In this document: in pieces, positions 2-40,887 of the stretch
Layout: each line of letters begins with the position of its first letter
Position numbering within the stretch: position 1 is the stretch's first letter
From: an uncultured Gemmatimonadales bacterium
GTDB taxonomy: Bacteria > Gemmatimonadota > Gemmatimonadetes > Gemmatimonadales > GWC2-71-9
NCBI GenBank assembly: GCA_963761885.1
Contig: CAVXIN010000005.1
Span: 55,734 to 119,733, forward strand
Reading direction: 5' to 3'
DNA: 64,000 nt
Notes under the pieces: model-generated
Told to the model about the DNA's origin: nothing
Seen by the model: only the letters and a program-made list of their open reading frames with translations
Database searches by the model: none
Position numbers and translations under genes: made by a program

Positions 2-523
2 CCCGGGCTGGCCCTGCGACGCGAGCGCGCCGCCAACCTGGCCGGGGCGCAGCTCCTGGGCTACTCGGCGGACTGGGCGGGCGCGCTGGGGCAGGTGCGC
101 GGCGCCGGCATCGTGGTCGTGCTCGACGCCGACCTCACGCCGGACGACGAGACCGCGCTGGCGGCGGCCCAGGGTCTGGTGGTGGTGATGTCCACCGTGG
201 ACCCCGAGCTCCGGAACGCCGAGCTCATCCTGCCGCTCACCAACATGGCCGAAGAGAACGGCTCCTACGTCAACCGCGACCGGCGGCTGCAGCGATATCA
301 GCAGGCCAAGGCACAGCCGGGCATGGCCCGCCCGGCGTGGTGGATCGCGGGCGAGGTGCTGTCCGGGCCGGGACCCGATGCCGCCGCGCCGGGGACGGCC
401 GCCGAAGCCTTCGCCCTGCTGGGTGAGCGCTGGCCGGTGTTTGCCGGCGTGACGCACGACGATCTGGGGTACACCGGCCGGGTGCTCGCCGACGCACCGG
501 CCGCCGCGGGAGCCGCGCGATGA
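2..523 (+). CDS. nuoG: NADH-quinone oxidoreductase subunit G, C-terminal part (5' end outside window)
   Basis: Open frame from the window edge. The peptide ..GAGIVVVLDADLTPDD..LILPLTNMAEENGSYVNRDRRLQRYQQA.. resembles the C-terminal molybdopterin-oxidoreductase-like part of NuoG. The stop overlaps the nuoH start (ATGA 520-523). Confidence 0.7.
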   Translation, partial: PGLALRRERAANLAGAQLLGYSADWAGALGQVRGAGIVVVLDADLTPDDETALAAAQGLVVVMSTVDPELRNAELILPLTNMAEENGSYVNRDRRLQRYQQAKAQPGMARPAWWIAGEVLSGPGPDAAAPGTAAEAFALLGERWPVFAGVTHDDLGYTGRVLADAPAAAGAAR

Positions 524-1767
524 CGCCGGAGATCAAGGGGTATCTGGTCCTCAGCGCGATCAAGATGCTGATCGTGTTCACCATCATCATGATCGGCGTC
601 GCGCTGCTCACGCTGATGGAGCGGAAGGTCAGCGCCTGGATGCAGAACCGGCACGGACCCAACCGGGTGGGCTGGGCCGGGCTTGCTGCAGCCCGCGGCC
701 GACGGGGTGAAGAACATCCTGAAGGAAGAGACCCTGCCCGCGATGGCCAATCCCTGGCTGTTCACGATCGCGCCGGCCCTCTCCTTCATCCCCGCGCTCC
801 TCCTGTCGGCGGTCATCCCCTTCGCCGCGCCGCTGCCGGTCGACTTCGACGTCACCCTCGGCCCGCTCGGGCGGTTCGTGCACCACGGGCCGATGCCGAT
901 GGTCGTGGCCGACCTGCCCGGTGGGGTTCCTGTTCGTGATCGCGGTGAGCTCGCTCGGTGTCTACGGGATCACGCTGGCGGGGTGGTCGTCCAACAGCAA
1001 GTACGCCCTGCTCGGCGGACTGCGCGCCAGGGCGCAGATGATCTCCTACGAAGTGGCGATGGGGCTGAGCCTCATTCCGGTGCTGCTCATGTCCGGCGAC
1101 GTCTCCTTCTCGACCATCGTGGCCAAGCAGCAGGCGGGTCTCTGGTACGTGATGCCCCTGTTCATCTCGTTCTTCATCTTCACCGTCGCCGGTTTCGCCG
1201 AGACCAACCGGCTGCCGTTCGACCTGCCGGAAGCCGAGTCCGAGCTCATCACCGGCTATCACACCGAATACAGCGCGATGAAGTTCTCCTTCTTCTTCAT
1301 CGCGGAGTATGCCAACGTCGTGACGGTCTGCGCGATGATCACCACGCTCTTCTTCGGCGGCTGGGACATCCCGTTCACCGACTGGGACCAGTCGGGCGGC
1401 ATCCTGCCGACCCTGCTGACGTGGCTGGTCTTCTTCCTCAAGGTCCTGTTCTGGGTCTTCTTCGTGATGTGGATCCGCTGGACGCTGCCGCGGTTCCGCT
1501 ACGACCAGCTGATGGCGCTGGGGTGGAAGGTGATGATGCCGCTGGCGCTGGTCTACATCATGGTGATCTGCGGCGCGATCTATCTGGTGGAGCACGTGTT
1601 CGGGATCACCGGCCCGGTGCTGGGCCCGCTGGTGCTGTTCGGGCTCAACGTCGGGATCGCGCGTCCTGCTCTTCGGGGTGCTCGACAGCGGAGTGTTCAT
1701 CCGGGGCTCCGGCGCCCGGCAGAAGGTTCACACGGCGCGCGGCGAACGAGCCGCAGTGGCGGGCTGA
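520..1767 (+). pseudogene. nuoH: NADH-quinone oxidoreductase subunit H, frame-disrupted as assembled (3 breaks)
   Basis: MTPEIKGYLVLSAIKMLIVF..MERKVSAWMQNRHGPNRVGWAGL continues as [18 protein letters not shown] in the next frame (~684). It then reads [38 protein letters not shown] after ~920. The last ~35 codons lie in a further frame after ~1661, ending at TGA 1765-1767, which overlaps the nuoI ATG. Confidence 0.9.
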
Positions 1768-2292
1768 TGGCCATCGGCGTGAAAGTCATGAAGCGCCCCG
1801 ACAAGCAGGTGAGCTACGTCCGGGCCACCCTCAAGGGCATGGCGCTCACCTTCAAGCACATGCTGGAGAAGAAGGTGACGATGCAGTACCCGGAGCAGAA
1901 GAGCACCGACCAGGATCACGGCATGGGCACCTACACGCTGTCGCCGCGCTGGCGCGGCACCCACCGGATGCTCACCGACGAGCAGGGGCGCTCGAAGTGC
2001 GTGGCGTGCGGCCTCTGTCCCCAGATCTGTCCCGCCAACTGCATCAAGCTGGTGCCGGGCGAGGACGAGGAGGGGAACCGCTATCCGCTCATCTACGAGA
2101 TCGACGAGTTCCGCTGCATCTTCTGCGGCTACTGCCAGGAGGTCTGCCCCGAGGAGGCCATCCACGTCGGCGTGCACTTCGAGAACTCGGAGTACAGCCG
2201 TGGGCCGCTTCGTCTACGATCTGGAGCGGCTCTCCTCGCAGACGCACGCCGTGTCGACGCTGTGGGACCCCTCGGACCCCGAGGGCGAGTAG
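1767..2292 (+). pseudogene. nuoI: NADH-quinone oxidoreductase subunit I (2x[4Fe-4S]), one frame break near the 3' end
   Basis: [18 protein letters not shown].. with ferredoxin motifs [12 protein letters not shown] and [12 protein letters not shown]. The C-terminal [28 protein letters not shown] is read in the next frame after ~2205. Stop is TAG 2290-2292. Confidence 0.9.
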
Positions 2293-2852
2293 ATGACCCA
2301 GGTCGTCTTCTACATCTTCGCCGCGATCGCCGTGCTGAGCGCCGCCCTGTGCATCCTGTCCCGGAGCGCCATCGCCGCGGTCCTCTGGCTCACCGCGACG
2401 ATGCTCTCGCTGGCGGCGATCTACGTCCTCCTCAGCGCCGAGTTCGTCGCCGCCATCCAGGTGCTGGTGTACGCCGGCGCGGTCATGGTGCTCTTCCTCT
2501 TCGTCATCATGCTGCTGAACCTCGGCCATCCCACGACCGACATGCGCGGACCCGCGGCGGTGGCCACGACCATCGTGATCGGCGGCCTGCTGGCGATCCA
2601 GCTCTTCGCGCTGTGGCGCTACACCCCGGCCCGGCTCGCGGCCGAGGTGGCGCAGGCTCCGCAGCTGAGCGACCCGGCAACCGTGTTCGCCGCCGGCCAG
2701 CTCGCGCGGGAAGAGGCCGTGACCAGAGGTGTGGTCGGGCGCGGTCGCCGCGCCGCTCTTCCAGACCTACCTGGTACCCTTCGAGATCACCTCGCATCCT
2801 GCTCCTCGCGGCCATCGTCGGCGCGGTCGTGCTGGCCAAGCGGAAGATCTGA
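2293..2852 (+). pseudogene. nuoJ: NADH-quinone oxidoreductase subunit J, frame-disrupted (2 breaks)
   Basis: [44 protein letters not shown]. The tail [21 protein letters not shown] and then [18 protein letters not shown] lie in two successive frames (breaks at ~2700-2730 and ~2795). Confidence 0.85.
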
Positions 2853-3162
2853 TGCCCGAAGGCCCCGTGCTGCTGGGCCCGGCGCTCGGCCTCTCGGCGA
2901 TCCTCTTCAGCCTCGGGGTCGCGGGGGTCCTGCTGCGCCGCAACGCGATCGTGCTGTTCGTCTGCATCGAGCTGATGCTGAACGCGGTGAACCTGACCTT
3001 CGTGGCCCTGGCCCAGCTCCACGGCGCCGGCGGGCAGGTCATGGTCTTCTTCGTGATGACGGTCGCCGCCGCCGAGGCCGCGGTCGGGCTCGCCATCATC
3101 CTCGCCATCTTCCGGCACAAGCAGTCGGTGGACCTCCAGAACATCAACCTGCTGCGGGGCTG

Positions 3163-3163
<1 letters not shown>
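2852..3163 (+). CDS. nuoK: NADH-quinone oxidoreductase subunit K
   Basis: Intact 103-codon [55 protein letters not shown]... The ATG overlaps the nuoJ stop, and the stop overlaps the nuoL ATG. Confidence 0.9.
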
Positions 3164-5160
<1,997 letters not shown>

Positions 5161-5165
5161 GCGCG

Positions 5166-6746
5166 ATGACCGAGTTCCTCGACTCCATCGGCTATCGGGC
5201 ACTGGATCCTCCACGTCCTGCTCGTCCTCCTGCCGCTCGTCGGCGTCGTGCCGGTCCTGCTGGGCACCGAGCGCGGCGCCAAGCGGACCGCGCTGGTCGT
5301 CACCACGCTCGAGTTCGTGCTGTCGCTCGGGCTCTGGTGGGCGCTCGACCCGACCCGCGGCACCGCTGCAGCTGGTCTCCGACACGCCCTGGATCCCCGG
5401 CTGGGGCATCAGCTACCGGTCGGCATCGACGGCATCTCGCTCTTCATGGTGCTGCTCACGACCGCGCTCATGCCGCTCAGCGTGCTCGGCAGCTGGCGCT
5501 ACATCACCAAGCAGGAGCGCGGCTTCTACGCGCTGCTGCTGCCCTGCTGACCGGGCTGGTCGGCGTCTTCCTCGCGCTCGACCTCTTCGTCTTCTACGTC
5601 TTCTTCGAAGTGATGCTGATCCCGATGTACTTCATCATCGGGATCTGGGGCGGGGCCAACCGGCTCTACGCCGCGATCAAGTTCTTCATCTACACCATGG
5701 CGGGCTCGCTGCTGATGCTGGTGGCGATCGTGGCGCTGGTCTGGCGGATCGAGCGCGTCACCGGGCCAGCTCTCCTTCGCCTACGAGCACCTGCTGGAGC
5801 ACGCCGGCGCCGTCGGGCCGCTGGCGCCGTGGCTCTTCGCCGCCTTCGCGCTCGCCTTCGCGATCAAGGTGCCGATCTTCCCGTTCCACACCTGGCTGCC
5901 CGACGCCCACGTCGAGGCGCCGACCGCGGGCAGCGTGCTGCTGGCCGGCGTGCATGCTCAAGATGGGGACCTACGGCTTCCTCCGGTTCGCGGTCCCGTT
6001 CTTCCCCGAGGTCGCGCTGAGCCCGACGGTCAGCCGCATCGTGGTGGTCCTCGCGGTGATCGGCATCGTCTACGGCGCGCTGGTCGCCATGGTGCAGCCC
6101 GACATCAAGAAGCTGGTGGCCTACTCGTCGGTGAGCCACCTCGGCTTCGTGATGCTGGGCATCTGGGCCGGCACGCGTGCAGAGCGTGCAGGGCGCGCTC
6201 ATGGTGATGATCAGCCACGGGATCTCGACCGGCGCGCTGTTCTTCCTCGATCGGCATGATCTACGAGCGGCGGCACACCCGGCTCGATCGCCGACTTCGG
6301 CGGCATCGCCCGGGTGGTGCCGGTGTTCAGCCTCGGTCTTCACGGTGGTGGCGCTGTCCTCCATCGGCCTGCCCGGCCTCAACGGGTTCGTGGGCGAGTT
6401 CCTGGTGCTGCTCGGCAGCTTCGGCGCCTATCCCGCTGGCCACCGTGCATCGCCACGACCGGCGTCATCTTCGCCGCGGCCTACCTGCTCTGGGCGCTGC
6501 AGCGGATCATCTTCAACCGGCTCGACAACCCGGAGAACGAGACGCTGACGGATCTGACCGCGCGCGAGCTGGCGGTGCATGGTCCCGCTGCTCGTCGGCA
6601 TCGTCTGGCTGGGGCTCTATCCCGGGCCGGTGCTGCAGCCGGATGGAGCCGGCGGCCAGGCGCTACATCGAGCTGACCGCAGCCCGGACGCGATCCGCGT
6701 CGCCGGTCGGCCGTCTCGGGATCGGTCGGGAGGTGCGCGCCGATGA
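5166..6746 (+). pseudogene. nuoM: NADH-quinone oxidoreductase subunit M, heavily frame-disrupted; 3' end approximate
   Basis: [10 protein letters not shown], then [15 protein letters not shown].., [108 protein letters not shown] and [18 protein letters not shown]. These are found by hopping between all three frames (I traced about 12 breaks). A possible stop TGA 6744-6746 overlaps the nuoN ATG. Confidence 0.85.
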
Positions 6747-8278
6747 ACCACTCGATCTCGGCACGCCGTTCGGCGTCACGCTCGCGCTGCTGCCGGAGCT
6801 GCTGCTCTGCCGGCTGGTCGCTGATCGTCCTGCTGGTGGTGAGCTGGCGGCACGAGACCGCCGCGGACAGCCGGCTCGCCGGGGTGGCTCAGCCTCGCGG
6901 GTCTGGTCGTCAGCGGCCGCGCGGCGCTGGCTGGCTCTGGATGGGCGGCGCCCGCCCGGAGGGCTGCCCTCAGATGATCGCGCTCGACGGCGTTCCGCTT
7001 CGCGCGCGCTGGCGCTGATCCTGCTCGCCGCCGGCGGCACGATCCTGCTCTCGCTCGGCTACCTGGAGCGGGAGCGGCTGCTCTGCGCCCGAGTACTACC
7101 CGCTGGTGCTCTTCGCCGACGGCGGGCATGATGTTCCTGGCCGGCGCCGAGGACCTGATCGTGCTCTTCCTCGGCCTCGAGGTCATGTCGGTCGCGGTGT
7201 ACGTGCTGGCCGGGTTCAACCGGCCGAGCCCGTCGTCCGTCCGAGGCGGCGCTCAAGTACTTCCTCATCGGCGCGTTCGCCTCCGGCGTTCCTGCTCTAC
7301 GGCATCGCGCTGGTGTACGGCGCCACCGGCACCACCAACCTGTCGCTCATCGGCGCGCAGCTCGCCGGGCGGCCGCTGCCGCTCATGGCGGCGCTGGGCC
7401 TGGGCCTGCTGCTGATCGGCATCGCCTTCAAGGTCGCCGCCGTGCCGTTCCACATGTGGGCGCCCGACGTGTACGACGGCTCGCCCACGCCGGTCACCGG
7501 GTTCATGGCCACCGGCGTCAAGGCGGCGGCGTTCGCGGCGCTGGTTCGCGTGCTGCTGGTGGCGTTCCCGTCGGCGCACCGAGGTCTGGCAGCCGGTCAT
7601 CGCCGGGCTGGCCATGGCCTCGATGGTGGTGGGCAACCTGGTGGCGCTCGCCCAGCGCTCGCTCAAGCGGATGCTGGCGTACAGCTCGATCGCCCACGCC
7701 GGGTACCTGCTGGTCGCGGTCTGGACCGGGACCCAGGCGGGCGCGGGGGCGGTGCTGCCTGTACCTGCTGGCCTACGCGCTCACCACGCTCGCGAGCTTC
7801 GGGTTCCTGACCGTGCTGGGCCGGGGCGGGGAGCGGGACGTGACCTACGACGCCATCGCGGGGCTCGCCGCCACGCGCCCTGGCATCGCGCTCGGCGCTC
7901 AGCGGTCTGCATGCTGTCGCTGCTGGGCTTCCCCGGCACGTTCGGCTTCATCGGCAAGTGGTACATCCTGACGGCGATGGTCGCCGAGGACCAGATGCTC
8001 CTGCCGGTGATCATCGTGCTCACCAGCGTGCGTCTCGGCAGGCTACTATCTGCCGGTGATCATGGCCATGTACATGCGGTCCGCGCCGAGCGGTGAGCGC
8101 GACGCCGTCGATCGGACTGAGCCCCACGGCCGCCGCCGCGATCGGCCTCTCCGTCGTGGTCGTGCTGCTGCTCGGCGTCTGGCCCCGGAGCGTCGCTCGA
8201 GATCGCCGGGGCGAGCGCTCGGTCCCTGACCCAGACCGCGCTGCCAGCGAGCCGGTGGCCGGCCGCGGAACCCCATGA
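6743..8278 (+). pseudogene. nuoN: NADH-quinone oxidoreductase subunit N, heavily frame-disrupted; ends approximate
   Basis: ATG 6743 is preceded by GGGAGG. Fragments are [133 protein letters not shown] and [10 protein letters not shown], in alternating frames (about 12 breaks). The candidate stop TGA 8276-8278 overlaps the next ATG. Confidence 0.85.
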
Positions 8279-9647
8279 ACGTCCCCAAGTCCATCTTCCG
8301 GCAGTACGACGTCCGAGGCCTGGTGGACAGCCAGCTCACGCCCGAGTTCGCCCGCGCGCTGGGTCGGGCCTTCGCCACGGTCGCGTGGGACCGGATCGGA
8401 CGCGCACCCACGATCGCGGTGGGACGCGACAACCGCCCCTCCGGCCCCGCGCTGTCGCAAGGCGTGCGGCAGGGGATCTCGGATGCCGGCGGCACCGCCG
8501 TGGACGTCGGCACGCTGCCCACGCCGGCGCTCTACTTCGCCGTCTCGGCGCTGAAGACCGACGGCGGCGTGCAGGTGACCGGCTCGCACAATCCACCCGA
8601 GTTCAACGGGTTCAAGATGGTGCTCGCGGGCGAGGCCTTTCACGGCGAGGACATCCTCGGCCTCTGGGAGATCATCACGGCCGAGCGCTGGCGGAGCGCC
8701 CGCGGCGGCGAGGCGACCGACAGCTCGGTGCTGCAGCGCTACCGCGAGGCGATCGTCGCCCGGCACAAGCTCGAGCGCCGGGTCAAGGTCGTCGCCGACT
8801 GCGGCAACGGCGTGGGCGAGCGTGATCGCCGTGTCCACGCTCGAGGCTCTGGGCGCCGAGGTGACGCCGCTCTTCTGCGATTCGGACGGCACCTTCCCCA
8901 ATCACCATCCCGACCCGACGGTGCCCGAGAACCTCGTGGATCTCCAGGCCGCGGTCCGCCGGACCGGCGCCGAGCTGGGCATCGCGTTCGACGGCGACGC
9001 CGACCGGATCGGCGCCGTGGACGAGTCCGGCGAGATCATCTGGGGCGACCAGCTCCTGGTCATCTTCGGCCGCGACGCGGTGAGACGCTTCGGTCCGGGC
9101 ACGCCGATCATCTTCGACGTCAAGTGCTCCGAGGTGCTCCCCACGGCGTTGCGGGAGGCCGGGGCCGAGCCGGTGATGTGGAAGACGGGCCACTCGCTCA
9201 TCAAGTCCAAGATGAAGGAGCTGCACGCGCCGCTCGCGGGCGAGATGAGTGGGCACATGTTCTTCGGCGGCGACTACTTCGGGTTCGACGACGCGATCTT
9301 CGCCGCGGCGCGCCTGCTGGAAATCGTGAGCCGGAAGCCGTTCGGACTCGCCACCCACCTGGCCGACCTTCCCAAGACCTTCGCCACTCCCGAGATGCGG
9401 GTGGACGCGCCGGAGGAGGAGAAGTTCGCGATCGTCGAGCGCGCGGCGAAGCACTTCGCGGCCCTGCTATCCCGTCAACACCATCGACGGGATTCGCATC
9501 ACCTTCCCCAAGGGTTGGGGCCTGGTCCGGGCCTCCAACACCCAGGCGATTCTGGTTCTCCGGTTCGAGGCGACCGATCCGGCCGCGTTGGACGCCTACC
9601 GCGGCGAGGTCGTCGGGTGGCTCGCCGGGCAGGGCGTTCGCGCGTAA
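8275..9647 (+). pseudogene. phosphomannomutase/phosphoglucomutase (alpha-D-phosphohexomutase), 2 frame breaks
   Basis: MNVPKSIFRQYDVRG. Phosphoserine loop TGSHNPPEFNGFK, metal loop FDGDADR, sugar loop GEMSGH. Read across three frames (breaks at ~8815 in a G run and ~9465). Stop is TAA 9645-9647. Confidence 0.85.
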
Positions 9648-9651
9648 CGCC

Positions 9652-12108
9652 GTGAATCGCCGCGGCCGACGGCTGATCGCCGCGATCGCCGGAGTCGTCG
9701 GCCTGCTCTTCCTTGGGCGATGGGTGGCCGGACTCCTGGCCGATCGATGGTGGGCCGACCAGGTCTCGCCGTCCGCCGTCGCATTCCTCACCGACTGGCA
9801 CATCCTTCGACTGACGCTGGATCTCGCCGGCTTCGTCCTCGCGTCCGCCTGGTTCATCGGCCACCTGCTCATCGTCTATCGCGCCGTGGGGTCGGTCCAG
9901 GTGCGCCGCCACGTCGCCAATCTCGAGTTTCGCGAGGCACTGACCCCCGGCGTCCTTCTGGCGATCGCCGTCGGGACCGGTGCCTTGCTGGGCCTCCTGG
10001 TCGGCACCGGCGGTGCCGAGCGCTGGCAACAGGTCGCGCTGGCCTGGCAAGGCGTCAGCTACGGACTGGTCGATCCTCTGCTGCAGAACGACGCGGGGCT
10101 GTACGTGGCCCAGCTGCCCGCGTGGCGGCTGGCCCACGGCTTCGCGTTGCTCCTGGTCATCCTCGGGCTCGGCGTCGTGTTCGGCCTCTACGTCCTCGTG
10201 GGCGCCGTCCGCTGGCTCGAAGGCCGTCCCGCCATCAACGACCACGCGCGGTCGCACCTCGGCTGGCTCTTGACCGGGCTCGCGCTCTGCCTGGTATGGG
10301 GCTACACCCTCGAGCCGTACGAGCTGGTGGCGGGTCTGGGGCGGCCGCTGGACCTCGCGGCCTGGCGCGCCACTACGCTGGTATCGCCGTTGCTCATCGG
10401 CGTCGGACTCGCGACCGCGGCGCTCAGCGCGACCTGGGCCATCCGCCCACGGCATGCGCTGGCGGCCGCGGGGTGGATCGTGCTGTCCTTCGCCTCGCTG
10501 GTCGGGCATTGGATGGTACCTCCCGCGATGGACGGCGATGGGGAGCCGGCCGCACCCACGGTGATCACGGAACGGCTCAACCGGGCGGCGTATCGCCTCG
10601 AGGCCTTCTCCGAGGAGCGACAGCCGCCACGCAGTCCCCCCGCACCGCCTCCGGTGCCGGCCCTCTGGAGCGTCGACGCGGTCCGCAGAATCGCGGCCGC
10701 CGATTCGGCCGAGATGCTTTCGGTGGATCCGTCCGTGCTGATGATGGTGCAGGGACGCCCCGGCCCGTGTGGCTGGCGGTGCGCGGGTCGGCCCCAGGGC
10801 CGTGCCACGGTGGCGGCGATCGCGGACGATCGCGTCGGGTCGCGGGGCCAGCCCCTCTTCTATTCGCCGAGCGACACGATTCCGGAGCCCGACGGGGCGT
10901 CCTACCTCGAGCTCGGAGCAGAGAGCTACCGGCCTGATGCGGCGGCCTACCGGATCGGGACCGCCGACCGCCGAGGCATCCAGGTCGGCGGGTGGCCTCG
11001 GCGACTGTTGCTGGCCTGGGCACTACAGGCGGGCGGGCTGCTTCGTCACGTGCCGCCCCAGGCCAAGGTGGACTGGCGGCTCTCGCCTGCGGAACGCCTC
11101 GCGGCGCTCGCCCCGTTCGCGCGCTGGGGGCAGCCGGCGCCGCGGCTGGTGAACCGTGGGCTGGTGTGGGTATTGGACGGGTACCTGGCCCCGCGCACGT
11201 TTCCCCTCAGTACCAGGCTCTCGTGGCGCGGCCGGGACGTCGGCGCACTGCAGGCCGGGTTCCTCGGCACGGTGGATGCCTCGACCGGCGCCACGCGGGT
11301 CTACCTTCGCCCCGGTGCGGACGGACTCGCCGCAGCGTGGGCCGCCGTGGCCAGCGGCTTGGTGGAGCCCGCATCGGCAATTCCGGAGGCCGTGCAGAGC
11401 GCGGCACCGTATCCGGTCGAGTTGTTCCAGGCCCAGGCGAGCTACCTCGAGCAATGGCTCCCGGATATCGGCAGCCTGGGCGGCCCACCCGGCTCGCGCG
11501 GTGGCGAGGTACCGGCCACGGACTTCGCCTGGACCGCCGACACCGCGGGGCCGATGCGCGTCGCCGTGTACGAGCGCGCCAACGAGCGGGTGCTGGGCGG
11601 GGTCCTGACGGGGGTCCGCTCCGGCTCGGGCGAGGAGCTGCGACTCACCCGCTTCGATTCGGCCGGTGCGCTGCCGACGCGCGCGGCGCTGGAGGGTCGC
11701 TGGGGCCGATTCCCCACCTACGACGCCTTGCGTGACTCCATCGGCGATGACGGGGGCAAGCTCGAGCAGGGGCCGGTGCGCATCGATCTCGGGAACGGCG
11801 GTGCGGTTGCCTATCAGTCGCACTTCGCGGTCCATCCCCGCCGCGGGGTCATCCTCTCCTGGGTGAGCGTCGCCGCTCGCGGGGATCTGGGCGCGGGCCG
11901 CACGCTGCCGGAAGCGTGGAACAACCTGCTGGGCGAGTCGGTGCCGTCCGTCGCGGGGACCGCGCAGGCCACGCGACTCGAAGAAGCACGACGCTGGCTC
12001 GAGCGCGCCGATTCCGCCCTCCGTGACGGCGACTGGACCGTCTTCGGCCAGGCGTGGCGCGGGCTGCGCGATGCACTCGGCCTCCCCGCGGACACGGCGG
12101 GCCGATGA
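9652..12108 (+). CDS. large polytopic membrane protein, UPF0182-like (family call from memory)
   Basis: 818-codon uninterrupted ORF starting at GTG 9652. The N-terminal half has about 7 hydrophobic helices and the C-terminal half is large and soluble, ending ..EARRWLERADSALRDGDWTVFGQAWRGL. The architecture recalls UPF0182 proteins. Confidence 0.5.
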   Translation: MNRRGRRLIAAIAGVVGLLFLGRWVAGLLADRWWADQVSPSAVAFLTDWHILRLTLDLAGFVLASAWFIGHLLIVYRAVGSVQVRRHVANLEFREALTPGVLLAIAVGTGALLGLLVGTGGAERWQQVALAWQGVSYGLVDPLLQNDAGLYVAQLPAWRLAHGFALLLVILGLGVVFGLYVLVGAVRWLEGRPAINDHARSHLGWLLTGLALCLVWGYTLEPYELVAGLGRPLDLAAWRATTLVSPLLIGVGLATAALSATWAIRPRHALAAAGWIVLSFASLVGHWMVPPAMDGDGEPAAPTVITERLNRAAYRLEAFSEERQPPRSPPAPPPVPALWSVDAVRRIAAADSAEMLSVDPSVLMMVQGRPGPCGWRCAGRPQGRATVAAIADDRVGSRGQPLFYSPSDTIPEPDGASYLELGAESYRPDAAAYRIGTADRRGIQVGGWPRRLLLAWALQAGGLLRHVPPQAKVDWRLSPAERLAALAPFARWGQPAPRLVNRGLVWVLDGYLAPRTFPLSTRLSWRGRDVGALQAGFLGTVDASTGATRVYLRPGADGLAAAWAAVASGLVEPASAIPEAVQSAAPYPVELFQAQASYLEQWLPDIGSLGGPPGSRGGEVPATDFAWTADTAGPMRVAVYERANERVLGGVLTGVRSGSGEELRLTRFDSAGALPTRAALEGRWGRFPTYDALRDSIGDDGGKLEQGPVRIDLGNGGAVAYQSHFAVHPRRGVILSWVSVAARGDLGAGRTLPEAWNNLLGESVPSVAGTAQATRLEEARRWLERADSALRDGDWTVFGQAWRGLRDALGLPADTAGR

Positions 12109-12110
12109 GC

Positions 12111-12139
12111 TTGCTCGCCCCTGGAGCCAGGACTAGCTT
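12111..12139 (+). promoter_or_regulatory. sigma-70-like promoter candidate TTGCTC-N17-TAGCTT upstream of carbamate kinase
   Basis: Hexamers at 12111-12116 and 12134-12139 with 17-nt spacing, 27 nt upstream of GTG 12167. This is the only intergenic gap between the UPF0182-like gene and arcC. Confidence 0.35.
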
Positions 12140-12166
12140 GCAGCGCGTTTTGGGGGGGCGGGTCGC

Positions 12167-13108
12167 GTGAGCACGGCCGTCCTCGCGCTCGGCGGCAACG
12201 CGCTGTCGCGCGCCGACGAACCGGCGACGATCGCGAATCAGTTCCGGCGGGCGCGGGAGAGCATGGCCGCGGTGGTCACGCTCGCGCGGCAGGGATGGCG
12301 GATCGTCATCGTGCACGGGAACGGCCCGCAGGTGGGCGACTCCCTGGTCCGGAACGAAGTCGCCCGCCGCCTGGTCGAGCCCCACCCTCTCGGGATCCTG
12401 GTGGCGGAGACGGCGGGCTGGATCGGATACATGCTCCAGCAGACGCTCCAGAACGCACTCGCCGCGGGTCAGGTTCGCCGGCAGGTGGTCACCGTGGTGA
12501 CGCAGACGCTGGTAGACCAGTTCGATCCCGCCCTCGGCCTGCCCACGAAGCCGATCGGCCAACCGCTGTCCGACGCCGAGGCGGCACGGCTGACGGAGGC
12601 GGGGCGCGCGGTGGCCCGGGACGGCTCCGGTGCGTGGCGGCGGGTGACGACCAGCCCGACGCCGCTCGCCGTGATCGAGTTCCCGGTCGTGCGGAAACTG
12701 CTCGACGCGGACGTCATCGTGATCGCGGCGGGAGGCGGGGGGCCGCCGGTCTACGACGATCCCCTGCTGGGGCTCGAGGGCGTGGATGCGGTGGTGGACA
12801 AGGACAGAGTCGCGGCCGTCTTCGCCAGGCAGCTCGAGGCGGATGTATTGATGATTCTCACCAACGTGGACGCGGTCTACGAGGGTTGGGGCACGCCGGC
12901 GGCCCGGCCGATCCGCCGCATGACCGTGTCCCGCGCGAATGCCATGATCGCGGCCGGCGCCTTCGACGTCGGCGGCATGCGGCCCAAGGTCGAAGCGGCC
13001 GCCGCCTTCGCCCAGGGCGGAGAAGGACGGGCGATCATCGCCCATCTGGCATCAGGACCGGCCGCCCTCGAGGGCGCTTCCGGCACCACGATCGTGAGGG
13101 ATGCGTGA
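12167..13108 (+). CDS. arcC: carbamate kinase
   Basis: 313 aa with LALGGNAL, IVHGNGPQVG, VVDKD and GGMRPKVEAA motifs of the carbamate kinase / amino-acid kinase fold. Confidence 0.85.
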   Translation: MSTAVLALGGNALSRADEPATIANQFRRARESMAAVVTLARQGWRIVIVHGNGPQVGDSLVRNEVARRLVEPHPLGILVAETAGWIGYMLQQTLQNALAAGQVRRQVVTVVTQTLVDQFDPALGLPTKPIGQPLSDAEAARLTEAGRAVARDGSGAWRRVTTSPTPLAVIEFPVVRKLLDADVIVIAAGGGGPPVYDDPLLGLEGVDAVVDKDRVAAVFARQLEADVLMILTNVDAVYEGWGTPAARPIRRMTVSRANAMIAAGAFDVGGMRPKVEAAAAFAQGGEGRAIIAHLASGPAALEGASGTTIVRDA

Positions 13109-14244
13109 ACCTGCATGAGTATCAGGCGCGGACGCTGCTGAAGAATGTGGGCATCGCCATGTTCGAAGGCGACGTCGCCTCCACGCCCACCGAAGCCGAG
13201 GCCATCGCGCGACGGATCGGCGGGACGGTGGTGATCAAGGCCCAGGTGCACTCCGGCGGCCGCGGCAAGGCGGGCGGAGTCAAGCTCGCGCGCAATCCCG
13301 CGGAAGCCATGGACGAGGCGGCCCAGATCCTGGGCATGACCATCAAGGGCCTCACCGTCCACAAGGTGCTGGTGGTTCCGGCCGCGGAGATCGTCACCGA
13401 GAGCTATGTCGGCCTCATCATGGATCGGGAGACGCAGCAGCCGGTGTTCATGGTCAGCTCCGCCGGTGGCGTCGACATCGAGGAGGTGGCGGCCAAGACA
13501 CCGGAGAAGATCGTCCGGCTGCCGGTGGATCCCACGCACGGCCTGTTCCCGCATCAGGCGCTCGCGCTCGCCTTCGTGCTGTATCGCGATTTCGCGCAGG
13601 TCAAGGCGGCGGCCAAGATGATGGAACAGCTCTATCGGGCCTTCATCGACAACGGCGCGTCGCTCGCCGAGATCAATCCCCTGGTCACCACGCCCGACGG
13701 CAGGGTGCTGGCCCTCGACGCCAAGATCGTCATCGACGACAACGAGCTCTTCTGGCGCCCCGACCTGGGCTTGCTGCGTGACGACTCCGCGGAAGAGCCC
13801 AGCGAAGCCGCGGCCCGCCGGGCCAACCTGTCCTTCATCAAGCTCGACGGCAACGTGGGGTGCGTGGTCAACGGCGCCGGGCTCGCCATGGCGACGATGG
13901 ACCTGGTGAAGTACTACGGTGGCGAGCCGGCCAACTTCCTCGACATCGGCGGCAGCTCGAGCCCGGAGAAGGTGATCAACGCGCTCAAGATCATCACCGC
14001 CGACCCCCACGTGAAGGCGATTCTGTTCAACATCTTCGGAGGCATCACCCGAACCGACGACGTGGCGAACGGCCTCGTGGCCGCCACCAAACAGTTCAAG
14101 GTGAATGTGCCGATCGTCATCCGCCTCACCGGCACCAACGAGGCCGAGGCCATTCGGATCCTCAACGAGGTTGGCATGACCGCTCTGAGCGACATGGACG
14201 AGGCGGTGCAGCGAGTGGTGAAGCTGGCCCAGGGGGCCGCGTGA
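13105..14244 (+). CDS. sucC: succinyl-CoA synthetase beta subunit
   Basis: [47 protein letters not shown]. The GTG start overlaps the arcC stop (GTGA). Confidence 0.95.
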
Positions 14245-15134
14245 GCATCTTCGCCGACAGCGCGACGCGGCTCGTCATTCAGGGGATCACCGGGCGGGAA
14301 GGATCCTTTCACGCCCGCCAGATGATCGAGTACGGGACCAACGTCGTGGCGGGGGTCACGCCGGGTAAGGGCGGCCAGACGTTCGAAGGCAAGGTGCCGG
14401 TGTATAACACCGTGGCCGACGCCGTGAAGGCCACCCAGGCCAACACGGCCGTCATCTACGTGCCACCGATGGGCGCGGCCGCCGCGGTCATCGAGGCGGT
14501 TGACTCGGGCATCCCGCTGGTCGTCTGCATCACCGAGGGCATCCCGGTCCTGCACATGAGCCGGGCGATGCCGTTCGTCCGGAGTCGCGGCGCCCGGCTC
14601 ATCGGACCCAACTGCCCCGGGCTCATCACGCCGGGCGCGCGGGCCAAGATCGGCATCATTCCCGGCAACATCTGCTCGCCCGGCCGAGTCGGCCTGGTGT
14701 CGCGCAGCGGCACGCTGACCTACGAGGTGGTGAATCATCTCACCCGGAACGGCATCGGTCAGAGCACCTGTGTCGGCATCGGCGGAGATCCCATCATCGG
14801 GACCAATTTCATCGACTGCCTGGCCGCGTTTCAGGACGACCCGGAAACCGAGGCGATCGTGATGATCGGGGAGATCGGTGGCACCGACGAGCAGAACGCC
14901 GCCGCCTTCGTCAAGGCGAAGGTGACGAAGCCCGTGGTCGGGTTCATCGCCGGGCAGACCGCGCCCAAGGGGCGGCGGATGGGCCACGCCGGCGCGATCA
15001 TCTCGGGCTCGTCCGGCACCGCGGAAGAGAAGCTGGCGGCGTTCGAGGCGGCGGGCATCGCCATCATGCGTCGGCCGGTGGACGTGGTGGAGCTGCTCAA
15101 GGCCAAGACCGGGGCCAAGCCCACCAGGAAGTAG
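14241..15134 (+). CDS. sucD: succinyl-CoA synthetase alpha subunit
   Basis: ..[41 protein letters not shown] (catalytic His loop). GTG overlaps the sucC stop. Confidence 0.95.
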
Positions 15135-15156
15135 CTCACTCGCTCAGGAGACCAGC

Positions 15157-15591
15157 TTGGTATCACACTCCCTCACGCTCGGCATCGTCAAGCCGGACGC
15201 CGTCGCCGGCAACAAGGCCGGCAAGATCGTCGCCCATCTGGAACAGGCCGGCTTCGTGCTGCGCGCGGCGCGGCTCACCCGGCTGACCACGGCGCAGGCG
15301 GGCGCGTTCTACGAAGTCCACCGGGGCCGCCCGTTCTACGACGAGCTGGTCAAGTTCATGACCAGCGGCCCCTGCCTCCCCATGGCGCTGGAGCGCGAAG
15401 AGGCCGTGGCGCATCTCCGCACCGTGATCGGCGCGACCGACCCGGCAGAGGCTGCCGCCGGCACCATCCGGAAACTCTATGCCGAGTCCAAGGGCCGGAA
15501 CGCGATTCACGCCTCGGACAGCCAGGACAACGCCGACCGGGAAGTGCGCTTTTTCTTCAGCGAGGGCGAGGTCGCAGGACTCTGGTCGTAG
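15157..15591 (+). CDS. ndk: nucleoside-diphosphate kinase
   Basis: [43 protein letters not shown] (active-site His). AGGAG precedes the TTG start. Confidence 0.9.
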
Positions 15592-15592
15592 G

Positions 15593-15621
15593 TTGCTTCA
15601 AGTGATTGTCCCGGTTACGTT
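15593..15621 (+). promoter_or_regulatory. sigma-70-like promoter candidate TTGCTT-N17-TACGTT upstream of yceD-rpmF-plsX-fab operon
   Basis: Hexamers at 15593-15598 and 15616-15621. The ATG at 15630 lies only 8 nt after the -10-like hexamer and has no Shine-Dalgarno sequence, which suggests a leaderless or near-leaderless transcript. Confidence 0.35.
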
Positions 15622-15629
15622 AAGCGGCT

Positions 15630-16106
15630 ATGCTGCGCGTGGACATTCGGGACCTCCAGCGGGGGCCTGTCCGGACGGTCGGCGAGCTGCCGCCGGAGGA
15701 TCCGACGTTCGATGGGCTGGGGCTCGACCTGATCGGTCCGGTCACGGTCGAGGGTCAGCTGCAGGCCACCGGGGATGGGGAGTATCTCTGGCGGGGCGAT
15801 GTGCACGGATCGGTGCGGGGGGAATGCCGCCGCTGCCTGGTCGAGGTCATCGACGAGGTGGATGTCGCGGTGGACGCCGCCGTGTTCAGCTCCGACCCTG
15901 AAGCGGCCGACGATCCCGATTTCTATCCCCTACCGGAACGAGCGGGAGCGGTGGACGTAGCGGCGGTGGTGCGCGAAGAGCTCGCCCTGGCCGCCCATGC
16001 GCATCTGCTGCTCTGTCGGGATGATTGTGCGGGACTGTGCCCCAAATGCGGGGCCGATTTGAACGCGGGGCCGTGCGCCTGTCACACTCCCGCCGAACCA
16101 GTCTGA
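15630..16106 (+). CDS. yceD: DUF177 / YceD-family protein (23S rRNA accumulation protein)
   Basis: 158 aa, acidic, with C-terminal Cys clusters (ECRRCL .. CAGLCPKCGADLNAGPCAC). It occupies the conserved position directly upstream of rpmF. Confidence 0.8.
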   Translation: MLRVDIRDLQRGPVRTVGELPPEDPTFDGLGLDLIGPVTVEGQLQATGDGEYLWRGDVHGSVRGECRRCLVEVIDEVDVAVDAAVFSSDPEAADDPDFYPLPERAGAVDVAAVVREELALAAHAHLLLCRDDCAGLCPKCGADLNAGPCACHTPAEPV

Positions 16107-16113
16107 GGGTCAC

Positions 16114-16296
16114 ATGGCAGTTCCGAAGCGCCGTACCTCCAAGATGAAGAAGCGCCTGCGGCGGGGTCACCATGCGGCCGCCAGCATGCGCACCCAGGCG
16201 TGTCCCCGGTGCAGCTCGCCCAAGCTGCCGCACCGGGTCTGCGATTCCTGCGGTTACTACGCCGGCAAGAAGCGGGTCGAGGTCGAGGACGCCTGA
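16114..16296 (+). CDS. rpmF: 50S ribosomal protein L32
   Basis: MAVPKRRTSKMKKRLRRGHH..CPRCSSPKLPHRVCDSCGYY. Confidence 0.95.
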   Translation: MAVPKRRTSKMKKRLRRGHHAAASMRTQACPRCSSPKLPHRVCDSCGYYAGKKRVEVEDA

Positions 16297-16298
16297 GC

Positions 16299-17311
16299 GT
16301 GATTCGCGTCGCGCTGGACGCGATGGGGGGGACAGCGCTCCGCGGACCGAGATCGCGGGGATGGTGCAGGCACTCAAGGAGCTGCCTGACGGCTTCCTGA
16401 TCCAGCTGGTGGGGCGCACGAGCGCGATCGAGGCGGAGCTGGCGCGACATCCTGAAATCGATCGGGCACGCGTCGAGCTGCACGAGGCGCCCGACGTCAT
16501 CGGCATGAGTGAAAAGCCGCTCCAGGCCGTCCGGAAGAAGCCCAAGTCGAGTCTGGTCGTCGGGCTCGGCCTGCAGCGCGACGGCCGCTCCGACGCCTTC
16601 ATCTCCGCAGGCAATACCGGCGCGATGCTCGCCGGCTCCACCATGCTCCTCGGGCTCCATGACGGCGTCGATCGCGCCACCGTGGCCACGCTGTTTCCCA
16701 CCGGATCCGAACCCGTCCTGGTCCTCGATGGTGGCGCCAATCTCGACTGCTCCCCCCGCGAGCTGCTCGGCTTCGCCTATCTGGGAACCGTCTACATGCG
16801 CGATCTCATGGGGCGGCCCAACCCGGTCGTCGGACTCCTCAACATCGGTGAGGAAGAAGAGAAGGGCACCGCCATCGTGCGCGAGGCGCACCAGCTCCTG
16901 AAACAGGCCCCTCGAATCAACTACGCCGGCAACATCGAAGGCCGGGATATCCTCCCCGGCCCGCAGCAGCGCATTCCGGTGGACGTGGTCGTCTGTGACG
17001 GGTTCGTGGGCAATGTCGTCCTCAAGTTCTACGAGTCCTCGGCTCGGGTGTTCGTCGGCCTTCTCAAGGAGCGGATCCCGGACGTGTTCGATCGGCCCGA
17101 AATGGCCGATCTCAACCGGATCCTGGACTACTCGACCTACGGCGGCGCGCCCCTGCTCGGCGTGAAGGGCGTGTCCATCGTGGGCCACGGCGCGTCCAGC
17201 CCCAATGCCATCAAGAACGCCATCCGGGTTGCGGTGCAGGCGGCAAGCGCCGGCCTCAGCCAGCACATCGGCGCCGAGTTCGCGCAGCGCCAGACGGTGG
17301 CCCCGGCGTGA
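16299..17311 (+). pseudogene. plsX: phosphate acyltransferase PlsX, one frame break in a G homopolymer
   Basis: VIRVALDAMGG is in one frame. After the G7 run at 16325-16331 (G8 would keep the frame) the rest of the protein (..DSAPRTEIAGMVQAL..ISAGNTGA..CDGFVGNVVLK..) is in the -1 frame. Confidence 0.9.
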
Positions 17312-18300
17312 TCCCGCGTCCGTTCGCCGAGCTGGCGAGTGTCGGCATCGCGGTGCCGGACCGGGTCCTGACTAACCACGACCTCACCCAGATGCTCGAC
17401 ACCTCCGACGAGTGGATCGTGGAGCGCACCGGCATCCGGGAGCGTCGGATCGCGCGGCAGGACGAGAGCGTCGCCATGCTCAGCTGCTCCGCGGCGGAGA
17501 TCGCGCTGGAGCGAGCCGGCGTGACAGCGAGTGAGCTGGACAGCATCGTGCTGGCGACCGCCAGCCCTGACCGTCTCCTGCCGTCCACCGCGTGCGACGT
17601 ACAGGCCCTGCTCGGCGCCGACAACGCCGCGGCGTTCGACATCGGTGCCGCCTGCCCCGGCTATCTGTATGCCCTCACCGTCGCCGAAGGGCTCATCGCC
17701 TCGGGGCAGAGCCGGACCGTGCTGGTGATCGGCGCGGAGAAGCTCTCCACCATCACGGACTTCACCGATCGCTCGACGGCCATTCTCTTCGGTGACGGCG
17801 CCGGGGCGTCGGTCGTACGCCGGTCATCGACGCCGGGACGGGGACTGCTCTCGACCTTTCTCAAGTCGGACGGCCGCCTCGCCCCGCTCCTCTATCGCCC
17901 CGGGGGCGGGTCGTCCGATCCGATCAGCGAGAAGGTGGTCTGCGACCGGTCGCACTACATGAAGATGGCCGGTCGGGAGGTGTTCAAAGCCGCGGTGCTC
18001 GCCATGGCGGAGGCGTGCGATGAAGCCCTCACTCGGGCCGGGGTGACCGCCGAGCAGATCGACCTCCTGATCCCGCACCAGGCGAACCTCCGAATCATCG
18101 ATGCCACCGCGAAGCACGCGGGCATCCCGATGTCCAAGGTGATGGTCAACCTGGACCGCTACGGGAACACGTCCTCCGCGTCCATCCCCCTCGCGCTCGA
18201 CCAGGCGGTGGCCGAGGGTCGGGTCGGTCCGGGATCGCTGGTGCTGCTGGTCGCGTTCGGCGCCGGCTTCACCTGGGGCAGCGCCGTCGTCCGGTGGTAA
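17308..18300 (+). CDS. fabH: 3-oxoacyl-ACP synthase III
   Basis: ..TSDEWIVERTGIRERR..AACPGYLYAL..PHQANLRII..YGNTSSASIPLAL... Intact 330 aa. Confidence 0.95.
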   Translation: MIPRPFAELASVGIAVPDRVLTNHDLTQMLDTSDEWIVERTGIRERRIARQDESVAMLSCSAAEIALERAGVTASELDSIVLATASPDRLLPSTACDVQALLGADNAAAFDIGAACPGYLYALTVAEGLIASGQSRTVLVIGAEKLSTITDFTDRSTAILFGDGAGASVVRRSSTPGRGLLSTFLKSDGRLAPLLYRPGGGSSDPISEKVVCDRSHYMKMAGREVFKAAVLAMAEACDEALTRAGVTAEQIDLLIPHQANLRIIDATAKHAGIPMSKVMVNLDRYGNTSSASIPLALDQAVAEGRVGPGSLVLLVAFGAGFTWGSAVVRW

Positions 18301-19221
18301 CGGTCCTGATGTGTCCGGGCCAGGGCGCGCAGCGCGTCGGCATGGGGAAGGATCTCGCCGAGCGATTTCCGGCCGCGCGCGACACCTTCGGCGCCATCGA
18401 CGAGACGCTCGGGGTCCCGCTGTCCCGCATCATGTGGGAAGGGCCCGAGGAGGAGCTGACCCGCACCCATAACGCGCAGCCGGCGATCCTCGCCCACACG
18501 GCCGCGGTGCTCGCGGTCGTGGGTGAGCGGATCGGATCGGTGGCCGCGGCGGCGGGGCACAGCCTGGGGGAGTACAGTGCCCATGTGGCCGCCCGAGCCC
18601 TCACCGTCACCGACGGGGCAGCGGCTGGTCCGGCGTCGCGGCGAGCTCATGCTCGCCGCGGGCAAGGCCCGCCCCGGCGCGATGGCCGCGGTGCTCGGCC
18701 TCGCCACCGCAGAGGTCGAGCTCGCCTGCAACGGGGCGTCCGGTGAGCGCGGCGTCGCTGTGGCCGCCAATCTCAATGCCCCCGACCAGACCGTCATCTC
18801 GGGCGATCCGGATGCGGTCGCCGCTGCGGGTGAGGCCTGCAAGACGCGCGGGGCCAAGCGCGTCATCGCCCTGAAGGTCAGCGGCGCGTTCCACTCCCCC
18901 TCATGGCTCCGTCGGTGGACGGCCTGCGCGAGGCACTCGCGGCGGTCGCTTTCGCCGATCCGGCATTTCCGGTGATCGCGAACGCGAGCGGGACCGCAGT
19001 CCGTACCGGAGTCGACGCCAAGCGCCTGCTCGCCGATCAGCTCACCGCCCCGGTGCGCTGGGTCGCCTGCATGCGGGCGGCCGCCGAGCTCGCGCCCGGC
19101 GCGAGGTTCATCGAGGTCGGGCCCGGGCGCCGTGCTCGCCGGCCTGCTCAAGCGCATCGTCCCCGAAGCGCGCGCGGTGACGCTCGGGACCGCCGACGAA
19201 GTGGAGAAGTTCCTCGCATGA
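18294..19221 (+). pseudogene. fabD: malonyl-CoA:ACP transacylase, 3 frame breaks
   Basis: CPGQGAQRVGMG and GHSLGEYSA are in the first frame. LVRRRGELMLAAG..ANLNAPDQTVISG..VSGAFHSP follow after the G run at 18615-18618. LMAPSVDGL..VRWV follow after the C5 run at 18896-18900 (C6 would be needed). The tail VLAGLLKRIVPEARAVTLGTADEVEKFLA follows after ~19130. Confidence 0.9.
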
Positions 19222-28631: not shown

Positions 28632-29609
28632 GATCCCGGTGGCCGCTGGTCCTGATCATCGTGGTCGCGCTCCTGGCCGCCGTCGTGCTCCTCCGTCGCG
28701 GCGACGACGCAGGCGCAGACGCCGAAGCGGACGGTGAGGACTCCGACGCTCCAATCGTGGCACCGAGCCGAGTGCGGAGCGACGCGGGCGAGACCCGGGT
28801 CGTGCTGGACACCGGTGAGATTCGTCGGATCGCGCTCGCGACCGCCGTGCTCCAGCCGGCGGCGGTGGGAACCGGGCAACGGCTGACGGCGCAGGTGGTG
28901 CCCGAGCCGGAGCGCGCGGTCACCCTCCGGGCGCCGGTCGCGGGACGCCTCAATCCAATCCAGGGCCGCCGGTGGCCCGCGCTCGGAGAGCGGGTCGCCG
29001 CCGGCACGGCCATCGGCCGCGTGTCCGACGCGCAGCCGCTCTCGGTGCCGATGGCTGGCGTCGTCACCCGGGTCGAGGCCAGGCCAGGGGAGATCGTCGA
29101 GGCGGGCCAGGTCCTGCTCGAGATCGCGGACAACAGCCGGCCCGTGGTCCGCGTCTCCTGGCCCGACGACACCACCCGCGCCCCGCGCCCGAGTGACGCT
29201 CCTTCCACCGGGCGGGGCAGCGATCGGCGCCACCCTGATTGGACCGGCACCCGAGGCAGACCCGCTGACGCGTCTGCCGGCCTACCTCTACCGGGCTCGG
29301 GGTCGCTGGTCGGGGGCGGTACCCGGCACCGTGGTCACGTTGTGGGTGGCCGGTGACAAGCGGGTCGACGGCGTCCTGATCCCGGACGGAGCCGTGGTGC
29401 AGTGGGAGGGACTCGCGTGGGCCTATGTCCAGCGTGCGCCCGGCGTCTATGCACGCGTGCGCGTCTCCACCGATCGACCCGTGCAGGGCGGCTGGCTGGC
29501 GAGCAAATCGCTCGCGGCCGGCGACACGGTCGTCGTCGCCGGCGTCCAGGAGCTGCTCTCCGAGGAGTTCCGGTCGCGGGTAACGGTGGGCGAAGAGTCG
29601 GGCGAATGA
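28628..29609 (+). pseudogene. RND efflux membrane-fusion protein (CzcB-like), one frame break
   Basis: N-terminal anchor [21 protein letters not shown], lipoyl/beta-barrel-like APVAGRL..MAGVVTRVEARPGEIVEAGQVLLEI. The C-terminal third (VTLLPPGGAAIGATL..VVVAGVQELLSEEF) is in the next frame after ~29185. Confidence 0.7.
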
Positions 29610-29625
29610 CGCGAGCCTCCCGCTC

Positions 29626-37660: not shown

Positions 37661-40876
<3,216 letters not shown>

Positions 40877-40887
<11 letters not shown>

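Follow-up and report, generated by a model that had tools for sequence, protein, structure and literature searches.

Operons with many broken genes are known from reductive evolution, of which the pseudogene-rich operons of Mycobacterium leprae are an example. Gene decay in bacteria proceeds by deletions of varied length and in random phase. The classical errors of Nanopore sequencing, for their part, are deletions in homopolymers. Frames may also be broken during assembly: in long-read assemblies, frameshifts and premature stop codons pseudogenize genes (PMC12007338). A near-finished R10.4 consensus requires about 40x coverage (PMC9262707), and long-read MAGs are known to suffer from microdiversity (PMC9262707, PMC12313526). 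Among the relatives of the bacterium studied here, those with MFD names (L002, L051, L011, L047, L058 and L062) come from a Nanopore-only catalogue built with metaFlye and one round of Medaka, whose authors note that Nanopore-associated errors occur when coverage is lower (PMC12313526). We analysed a window of 64,000 nucleotides from a Gemmatimonadales bacterium, in which the complex I genes nuoH-I-J-K-L-M-N are interrupted by dozens of frame breaks.

Extent and density of the frame breaks

Frames were called by frameshift-aware protein-to-DNA alignment against L001, an intact relative assembled from short reads, and were tracked with a GC3 frame plot and a 7-state GC3 HMM. The events in nuoL were cross-checked with three references, all of which agreed. 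Expectations for homopolymers and codon phase were taken from a matched simulation in which random insertions were run through the localisation pipeline. The closest DNA to the window was that of L081 (92% identity) and L082 (87%); among the nearest other proteins, identity was 85% for NuoM and 93% for RpoN (45612-47198).

The alignment to L001 revealed about 57 frame breaks between 682 and 9466 of the forward strand, a span of 8.8 kb (Table 1). A preliminary description of the same DNA had reported the breaks from nuoH to nuoN, and the sites lay where it had placed them. Its counts for nuoH (3), nuoI (1) and nuoJ (2) and its intact nuoK were reproduced exactly. For nuoL, nuoM and nuoN it had estimated about a dozen breaks each; the alignment gave about 15-18 each. 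It had bounded the dense stretch at 520-8278; the breaks are indeed dense there, but they go on into the following manB-like gene, which has two and forms the tail of the hot spot. It had also noted indels in both directions, among them a missing G at about 5419 (the alignment placed a deletion at 5421), but insertions strongly predominate.

Table 1. Genes and single-base frame events in the window, with properties of the frame-corrected products
Feature	Coordinates	Strand	Frame events	Remarks
nuoG, 3' end (last 173 codons)	2..523	+	0 frameshifts vs L001 NuoG residues 367-539	stop codon at 521
nuoH	520..1767	+	three +1: 682, 917-919, 1662	Pfam NADHdh positions 1-297 of 298, E = 5.6e-121
nuoI	1767..2292	+	one +1: T at 2201	two 4Fe-4S domains (Pfam Fer4 x2); 159/177 residues identical to L001
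nuoJ	2293..2852	+	two +1: 2736, 2794	Pfam Oxidored_q3 positions 1-146 of 146
nuoK (103 codons)	2852..3163	+	0	sole unbroken membrane-arm ORF; Pfam Oxidored_q2; 96/106 identical to L001
nuoL	3163..5160	+	about 16-18 extra bases	Pfam Proton_antipo_N + Proton_antipo_M
nuoL extra bases, first part			3242-3254 (x2), 3336-3343, 3591-3599 (x2), 3780-3784, 4083, 4155, 4169-4173	
nuoL extra bases, second part			4344, 4478-4491, 4660, 4705, 4726-4746 (x2), 4771, 4781, 4967	
nuoM	5166..6746	+	12 insertions, 2 deletions	Pfam Proton_antipo_M positions 1-286 of 294; junction with nuoN placed only to within 6738-6746
nuoM insertions, first part			5195, 5365, 5763-5769, 5953, 6176, 6249	
nuoM insertions, second part			6286, 6335-6340, 6434-6436 (x2), 6578, 6636-6640	
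nuoM deletions			5421, 5543	
nuoN	6743..8278	+	about 15 insertions, 2 deletions	Pfam Proton_antipo_M positions 1-293 of 294; stop TGA 8276-8278 overlaps ATG of next gene
nuoN insertions, first part			6808, 6881-6884, 6991, 7004-7019, 7084, 7118, 7239, 7287	
nuoN insertions, second part			7577, 7757, 7895-7904 (x2), 8031, 8110, 8183-8195	
nuoN deletions			6934, about 8252 (C run)	
phosphomannomutase/phosphoglucomutase-like (manB-like)	8275..9647	+	two +1: G at 8818, G at 9466	four PGM_PMM domains
fabD			+1: 18614, 19118	
RND pump			+1: 31204, 31910	
kdsB			+1: 37883	
kdsA			+1: 40700	
further site			+1: 41431	stop codon abolished
further sites			+1: 44126, 44269, 48958, 49048, 51552	

The density is 6.5 breaks/kb over 680-9470 and about 9/kb within nuoL-N. 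As deposited, only nuoK among nuoH-N has an uninterrupted reading frame, which is unremarkable because 312 nt at 6.5 breaks/kb would be expected to hold only about 2 breaks. The GC3 plot and the HMM divided positions 500-8300 into about 45 frame segments, and segments of gene size were found further along the window. No break occurs in the 9.1 kb that follow the hot spot. The rest of the window contains about 14 breaks (0.26/kb), so the hot spot is about 25-fold denser (Poisson p about 1e-58); the density had been described beforehand as far above that of the rest, which is correct, but the rest is not clean. These outside breaks have the same signature, 11-12 of them being +1, and fall in fabD, the RND pump, kdsA, kdsB, glycosyltransferases and others. 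A uniform error process cannot explain such a local excess, which counts against an artefact in that an additional local cause is needed.

Error spectrum and conservation of the corrected proteins

All events in the hot spot involve one base, and about 53 insertions stand against 4 deletions (binomial p = 6e-12). The inserted bases are mostly G or C and usually differ from both neighbours. An identical neighbouring base was found at 6/37 insertions, compared with 49% in the matched simulation (p = 3e-5), which means that homopolymers are avoided; all four deletions, on the other side, fit homopolymer contraction. The dominance of insertions outside homopolymers departs from the classical Nanopore pattern, and this counts against an artefact. 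With respect to codon phase, 26 of 30 insertions in the nuo region were adjacent to a third position against 76% in the simulation, a trend only (p = 0.13); when sites outside nuo were pooled with them, the figure became 40 of 44 resolved sites (p = 0.012). A local stutter, in which the extra base completes a short nearby repeat (e.g. TCG-A-TCG), was considered, and its excess over matched pseudo-insertions was not significant (p = 0.16). Inspection of the site contexts revealed no evident single sequence motif, such as a methylation site, around the insertions.

Once the frames were corrected, the seven genes nuoH-I-J-K-L-M-N were found in canonical order, each matching its own subunit family in Pfam, and the locus was collinear with L001, L002 and L051. 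The corrected subunits span their Pfam models from one end to the other and are equal in length to those of L001. Corrected NuoH, NuoL, NuoM and NuoN share 83, 80, 83 and 78% identity with L001, values matched by the intact orthologues of the sister genomes L002 and L051. In the true frame, GC3 amounts to 0.9-1.0, and no large deletions were detected from nuoH to nuoN (a span of 7759 nt, compared with about 7680 nt for L001), in agreement with the earlier remarks on G/C-rich third positions and on the lack of such deletions. One lesion is of another kind: at 4478-4480, nuoL reads TAG in frame, and relatives carry the Tyr codon TAC; this is a substitution and not an indel, and it counts against the artefact reading.

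The assemblies of relatives were compared for the same genes. In ten short-read assemblies (30 genes), nuoL, nuoM and nuoN contain 0 frameshifts, against 39 in 8 long-read assemblies (34 in L011, 2 each in L047 and L058, 1 in L062). In addition, the long-read assemblies L002, L051 and L082 have 3, 2 and about 6 frame breaks, respectively. Nearly all breaks in the long-read relatives are +1. In L002, L051 and L011, whose contexts were read, the insert is mostly a G or C at a codon boundary, which matches the window. Between the window and L011 (CAWHXS010000002.1, nuoL-N at locus 13157-17291), 5 break sites were common to both, with 4.4 expected by chance. The break signature follows the sequencing platform, not phylogeny.

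Origin of the frame breaks

Taken together, the above results suggest, with a probability that we put at about 93%, that the frame breaks arose as errors of consensus calling in a long-read (Nanopore-type) metagenome assembly and that the organism itself does not carry them as mutations. In this Gemmatimonadales bacterium the nuoH-I-J-K-L-M-N operon is most likely normal and intact. Over the stretch of about 9 kb from 682 to 9466, read support would have been poor or mixed when the consensus was made; the outcome would be about 53 spurious extra bases, mostly G or C unlike both neighbours and usually beside a codon third position, and 4 missing bases in short homopolymers. The error signature alone leads us to infer that the contig was sequenced with long reads. 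Either low coverage or the joint polishing of reads from two co-occurring strains may have caused the hot spot. The preliminary description had likewise preferred indel errors of the consensus, in a part of the assembly with weak support, to an inactivated operon, and every indirect test possible backed that choice.

A variant of the artefact that we regard as possible but somewhat doubtful is that reads from two strains, or from a segment common to two genomes, were collapsed and that, wherever they differ, both alleles were retained one after the other during polishing; in that case the hot spot would show where two populations resemble each other closely enough for their reads to be merged. 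The sharply local character of the hot spot and the known effect of microdiversity on long-read MAGs are consistent with this, and the extra base is almost always unlike its neighbour and adjoins a third codon position, which lets the pair be read as two synonymous codons (e.g. CTC-G-ATC, GTG-C-ATG, TA(T)C, CG(T)G). The pooled excess beside third positions also argues for it, though within the nuo region alone that excess was not significant. The composition of the pairs speaks against it: 81% of them are C/G, against only 38-42% among real differences from relatives at 8-13% divergence (p = 7e-6); transitions account for 39-45% of those real differences. In addition, the TAG at 4478 cannot be the allele of a functional strain.

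A real and very recent inactivation of complex I, with the indels present in the DNA of the organism and the operon consisting of young pseudogenes, seems very improbable. The concentration of breaks in one operon and the one nonsense codon would fit such an event, as would the finding that the 64-kb window holds no second nuo locus to compensate. An artefact is preferred to decay because the spectrum is technical, with its 53 single-base insertions to 4 deletions quite unlike bacterial decay; because genes elsewhere in the window that are unrelated to nuo, including the essential fabD, kdsA and kdsB, bear the same signature; because it depends on platform, recurring in other long-read assemblies and in nuoL, nuoM and nuoN of 0 of 10 short-read ones; and because protein conservation is undiminished, there being no excess amino-acid divergence and codon bias having been kept.

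Collapse of paralogues within the genome, either among nuoL, nuoM and nuoN or between them and another nuo or mrp locus, had been offered earlier as a reason for the poor assembly, and NuoL, NuoM and NuoN do share one Pfam family, Proton_antipo_M. This reading is very improbable, and for the three genes among themselves it is excluded: their amino-acid identity is only 25-43%, well below what would allow reads to be merged. Moreover, the window has no second nuo locus, and nuoH, nuoI, nuoJ and the manB-like gene are also broken and have no paralogues in the window.

It is scarcely credible that the extra bases are real in the nuoL-M-N region of one soil Gemmatimonadales lineage (and independently in that of L011), whether as a just-inactivated complex I or as genes whose expression needs dozens of +1 recodings. 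In particular, bypass of real extra bases by +1 ribosomal frameshifting or RNA editing would suit events that are nearly all +1 and a similar nuoL-N cluster in L011, but it may be dismissed as negligible given heterogeneous contexts with no shared slippery or stimulatory motif seen around the sites, coincidence with L011 at the level of chance, and the same events in many unrelated genes, only in long-read assemblies; we know of no bacterial precedent for some 50 recoding sites within a single operon.

If consensus-calling error is the correct reading, the biological importance of the breaks is nil, as complex I of the organism is almost certainly normal. Automatic annotation would call nuoH, nuoI, nuoJ, nuoL, nuoM, nuoN, fabD, kdsA, kdsB and the RND pump pseudogenes or fragments, and NADH dehydrogenase could then be wrongly taken to be missing from the lineage. 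The signature, that is, single G/C insertions outside homopolymers that cluster in hot spots of several kilobases, may help to flag and repair long-read MAGs.

Comparison with reductive decay and with long-read assemblies

With the pseudogene operons of reductive evolution, as in M. leprae, the locus shares many frame breaks in respiratory genes. Reductive decay, however, shows deletions of mixed size, a load of nonsense and missense changes and a loss of codon bias, a pattern from which the window departs. It stands closer to the gene-fragmenting errors of long-read assemblies (e.g. PMC12007338), which likewise produce apparent pseudogenes that vanish after frame correction against relatives. 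Long-read errors in general are usually genome-wide, whereas those of the window form a sharply bounded hot spot. In the Nanopore-only MAGs of the Microflora Danica long-read catalogue, single-base indels likewise split otherwise normal genes, and the error rate is set by coverage and microdiversity (PMC12313526, PMC9262707). The likeness to that catalogue is drawn from the signature; the window may come from it, and its data are presumably Nanopore. Unlike the homopolymer-related errors stressed in those studies (PMC12313526, PMC9262707), the errors of the window are predominantly insertions outside homopolymers, packed 25-fold into one stretch of 9 kb.

Frame breaks from nuoH to the manB-like gene

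The G+C content of the window is 69%, and GC3 in its coding frames reaches 90-100% (frame plot), so that the coding frame can be read straight from composition. Judged by the nearest relatives, the DNA belongs to a Gemmatimonadales bacterium. In a 7-state GC3 HMM, 500-8300 broke up into short frame segments, about 45 in number and all of them on the + strand; past about 9640 the segments were gene-sized and terminated at stop codons. Three-frame translation of the region gave textbook-like NuoH, I, J, K, L, M and N peptides that switched frames. With the intact NuoH fragment as query, 80 related loci were gathered, and breaks were mapped by a purpose-written dynamic-programming protein-to-DNA alignment in which frameshifts are allowed. 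The reference was L001, a megahit contig from a Gemmatimonadales MAG and the best short-read relative (NuoH 86% identical), with a complete and intact operon. When proteins of L002 and L051, from MFD-named Nanopore-only catalogue genomes, were used as references, the break sites were identical.

This alignment confirmed the break coordinates and examples of the preliminary description. The cluster, however, does not end at 8278 as had been proposed there: the hot spot spans 682-9466 and takes in two breaks in the manB-like gene, while the gene after it showed essentially no frame breaks in the alignment to L001. Over the whole hot spot, about 53 bases are extra and 4 are missing. Apparent +2 events proved to be two adjacent +1 events, for example at 3591-3599, where CCCG GTGC corresponds to CC{C,G} GT{G,C}.

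Features and frame breaks of the window (nuoH to the manB-like gene: alignment to L001)
Feature	Coordinates	Frame breaks
nuoG 3' end	2-523	
nuoH		3
nuoI		1
nuoJ		2
nuoK		0
nuoL		15
nuoM		13
nuoN		15-16
Phosphomannomutase-like (manB-like) gene, after nuoN	from 8275	2 (8818, 9466)
Missing bases, each consistent with a shortened G or C run		5421, 5543, 6934, ~8252
fabD	18300-19215	18614, 18894, 19118
CzcA-like RND pump	29606-32738	31204, 31910
kdsB	37723-38408	37883
kdsA	40071-40943	40700
KdsC-like gene		+1 at 41431, abolishes stop codon (L082 alignment)
+1 insertions (L082 alignment)		44126, 44269
Glycosyltransferase		48958, 49048
Membrane protein		51552

At the nuoM/nuoN junction (6738-6746), the expected overlapping ATGA (nuoN ATG at 6743, TGA at 6744-6746) is out of frame with the aligned nuoM end and nuoN start, and one or two additional indels probably lie there. 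A single nonsense codon was found in the corrected nuo genes, an in-frame TAG at 4478-4480 of nuoL where L001 and relatives have TAC (Tyr); it is a substitution-type error amid the indels.

For every frame-corrected protein the Pfam match ran the full length of the model: NADHdh 1-297 of 298 for NuoH, Oxidored_q3 1-146 of 146 for NuoJ, Oxidored_q2 3-95 of 95 for NuoK, and Proton_antipo_M, matched three times, at about 1-290 of 294. Identities to L001 (NuoH 83%, I 90%, J 76%, K 91%, L 80%, M 83%, N 78%) could not be distinguished from the values for the L002 and L051 orthologues, which are intact, and codon bias was undiminished. The broken nuo genes are not decaying. The nearest NuoM elsewhere is 85% identical. 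RpoN (45612-47198) matches one protein in NCBI and ENA at 100% identity, and the next match is at 93%.

Character of the inserted bases

Each +1 event was positioned at the nucleotide level against L001. The inserted base was C or G in 25 of 30 uniquely placed cases, and only 6 of 37 insertions had an identical neighbouring base. As a null model, random composition-weighted insertions were run through the identical localisation step; 49% of them were homopolymer-adjacent (p = 3e-5), so the observed avoidance of homopolymers is strong. Most insertions adjoin a third codon position, the third base and the extra base giving two synonymous codons. The same appearance was seen in 76% of resolvable simulated insertions, and the excess in the nuo region (26/30, p = 0.13) is therefore a trend only; it became modestly significant after pooling of non-nuo sites (40/44, p = 0.012). 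These pairs of third base and extra base are 81% C/G; where this genome truly differs from relatives that are 8-13% diverged, C/G makes up only about 40% of the differences and transitions about 40%. A seeming preference for inserted bases that complete a short repeat nearby was not significant.

Related assemblies and the rest of the window

The aligner used for the window also scored nuoL, nuoM and nuoN in 18 related loci. The 10 short-read assemblies (k141/NODE contigs) had 0 frameshifts in 30 genes; the 8 long-read assemblies had 39, 34 of them in L011 (MFD02242.bin.2.15, CAWHXS010000002.1). There the breaks are mostly +1 and crowded in 13157-17291, from mid-nuoL to the nuoN end; the alignment shows none in the first 900 nt of nuoL, and its nuoA-K frames are gene-sized by GC3 segmentation, which is weakly informative at 64% G+C. 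L011, a different long-read Gemmatimonadales MAG with NuoH 66% identical to that of the window, is one independent case of a nuoL-N hot spot. Breaks of L011 and of the window coincide in 5 cases, where chance alone would give 4.4, which indicates that they are not conserved sites. L002 and L051 carry 3 and 2 insertions, all G/C and at codon boundaries.

Outside the hot spot, the GC3 HMM gave about 14 additional frame changes without a coincident stop codon, and translation showed single genes divided between frames at such sites. Exact placement came from L082, a syntenic 'contig_N' assembly (ENA ERZ25039516 contig_75935) 87% identical over 21.6 kb: like those of the hot spot, nearly all are +1 G/C insertions, the exception being 18894, where a C6 run has lost one base. 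No break was found in 9467-18613 or among the genes on the minus strand at 54-64 kb. Breaks thus number about 0.26/kb in the background and 6.5/kb in the hot spot (25-fold). L082 itself has about six breaks resembling those of the window: at 2777-5251 a +1 insertion fuses pyrG to kdsA in an 824-residue 'CTP synthase + DAHP_synth_1' ORF, and at 5791-6754 a KpsF-like gene is split by the same kind of error.

A large membrane-protein gene (9638-12108) shares 60% identity with its L001 neighbour; its GC3 signal, about 0.85, is weaker than in adjacent genes. The -1/+1 pair at 10760/10785, in which the two shifts cancel, may reflect natural divergence or be two further errors.

Origin of the frame breaks

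The hot-spot breaks are not a real genomic feature; they are best explained as a consensus artefact, to which we give a probability of roughly 0.93. Such an error had been preferred in the preliminary description, and it is supported by the near insertion-only spectrum, the breaks in essential genes, the restriction to long-read assemblies and the conserved proteins. A biological origin would have to combine a mutational process yielding almost exclusively single-base insertions, breaks in essential genes window-wide and confinement to long-read assemblies.

Why the artefact piles up in 682-9466 has two possible answers. Read support may be locally low or poor. Alternatively, the reads used to polish the region may have come from two co-occurring strains or from a segment that more than one genome carries. 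This second answer fits the local boundaries of the hot spot and the trend at wobble positions; neither the C/G-dominated spectrum nor the TAG codon agrees with it. Collapse of paralogues, for which the relatedness of nuoL, nuoM and nuoN had been offered as a rationale, failed on a prediction that was tested: identity among NuoL, M and N is only 25-43%, and there is no second locus within the window. Real gene decay and programmed frameshifting each failed a tested prediction as well.

The MFD genomes rest on Nanopore reads alone; metaFlye was the assembler, polishing was by one Medaka round, and the authors report Nanopore-associated errors in lower-coverage MAGs (PMC12313526). With R10.4 data a near-finished consensus is reached only from about 40x, and MAG quality is affected by microdiversity (PMC9262707).
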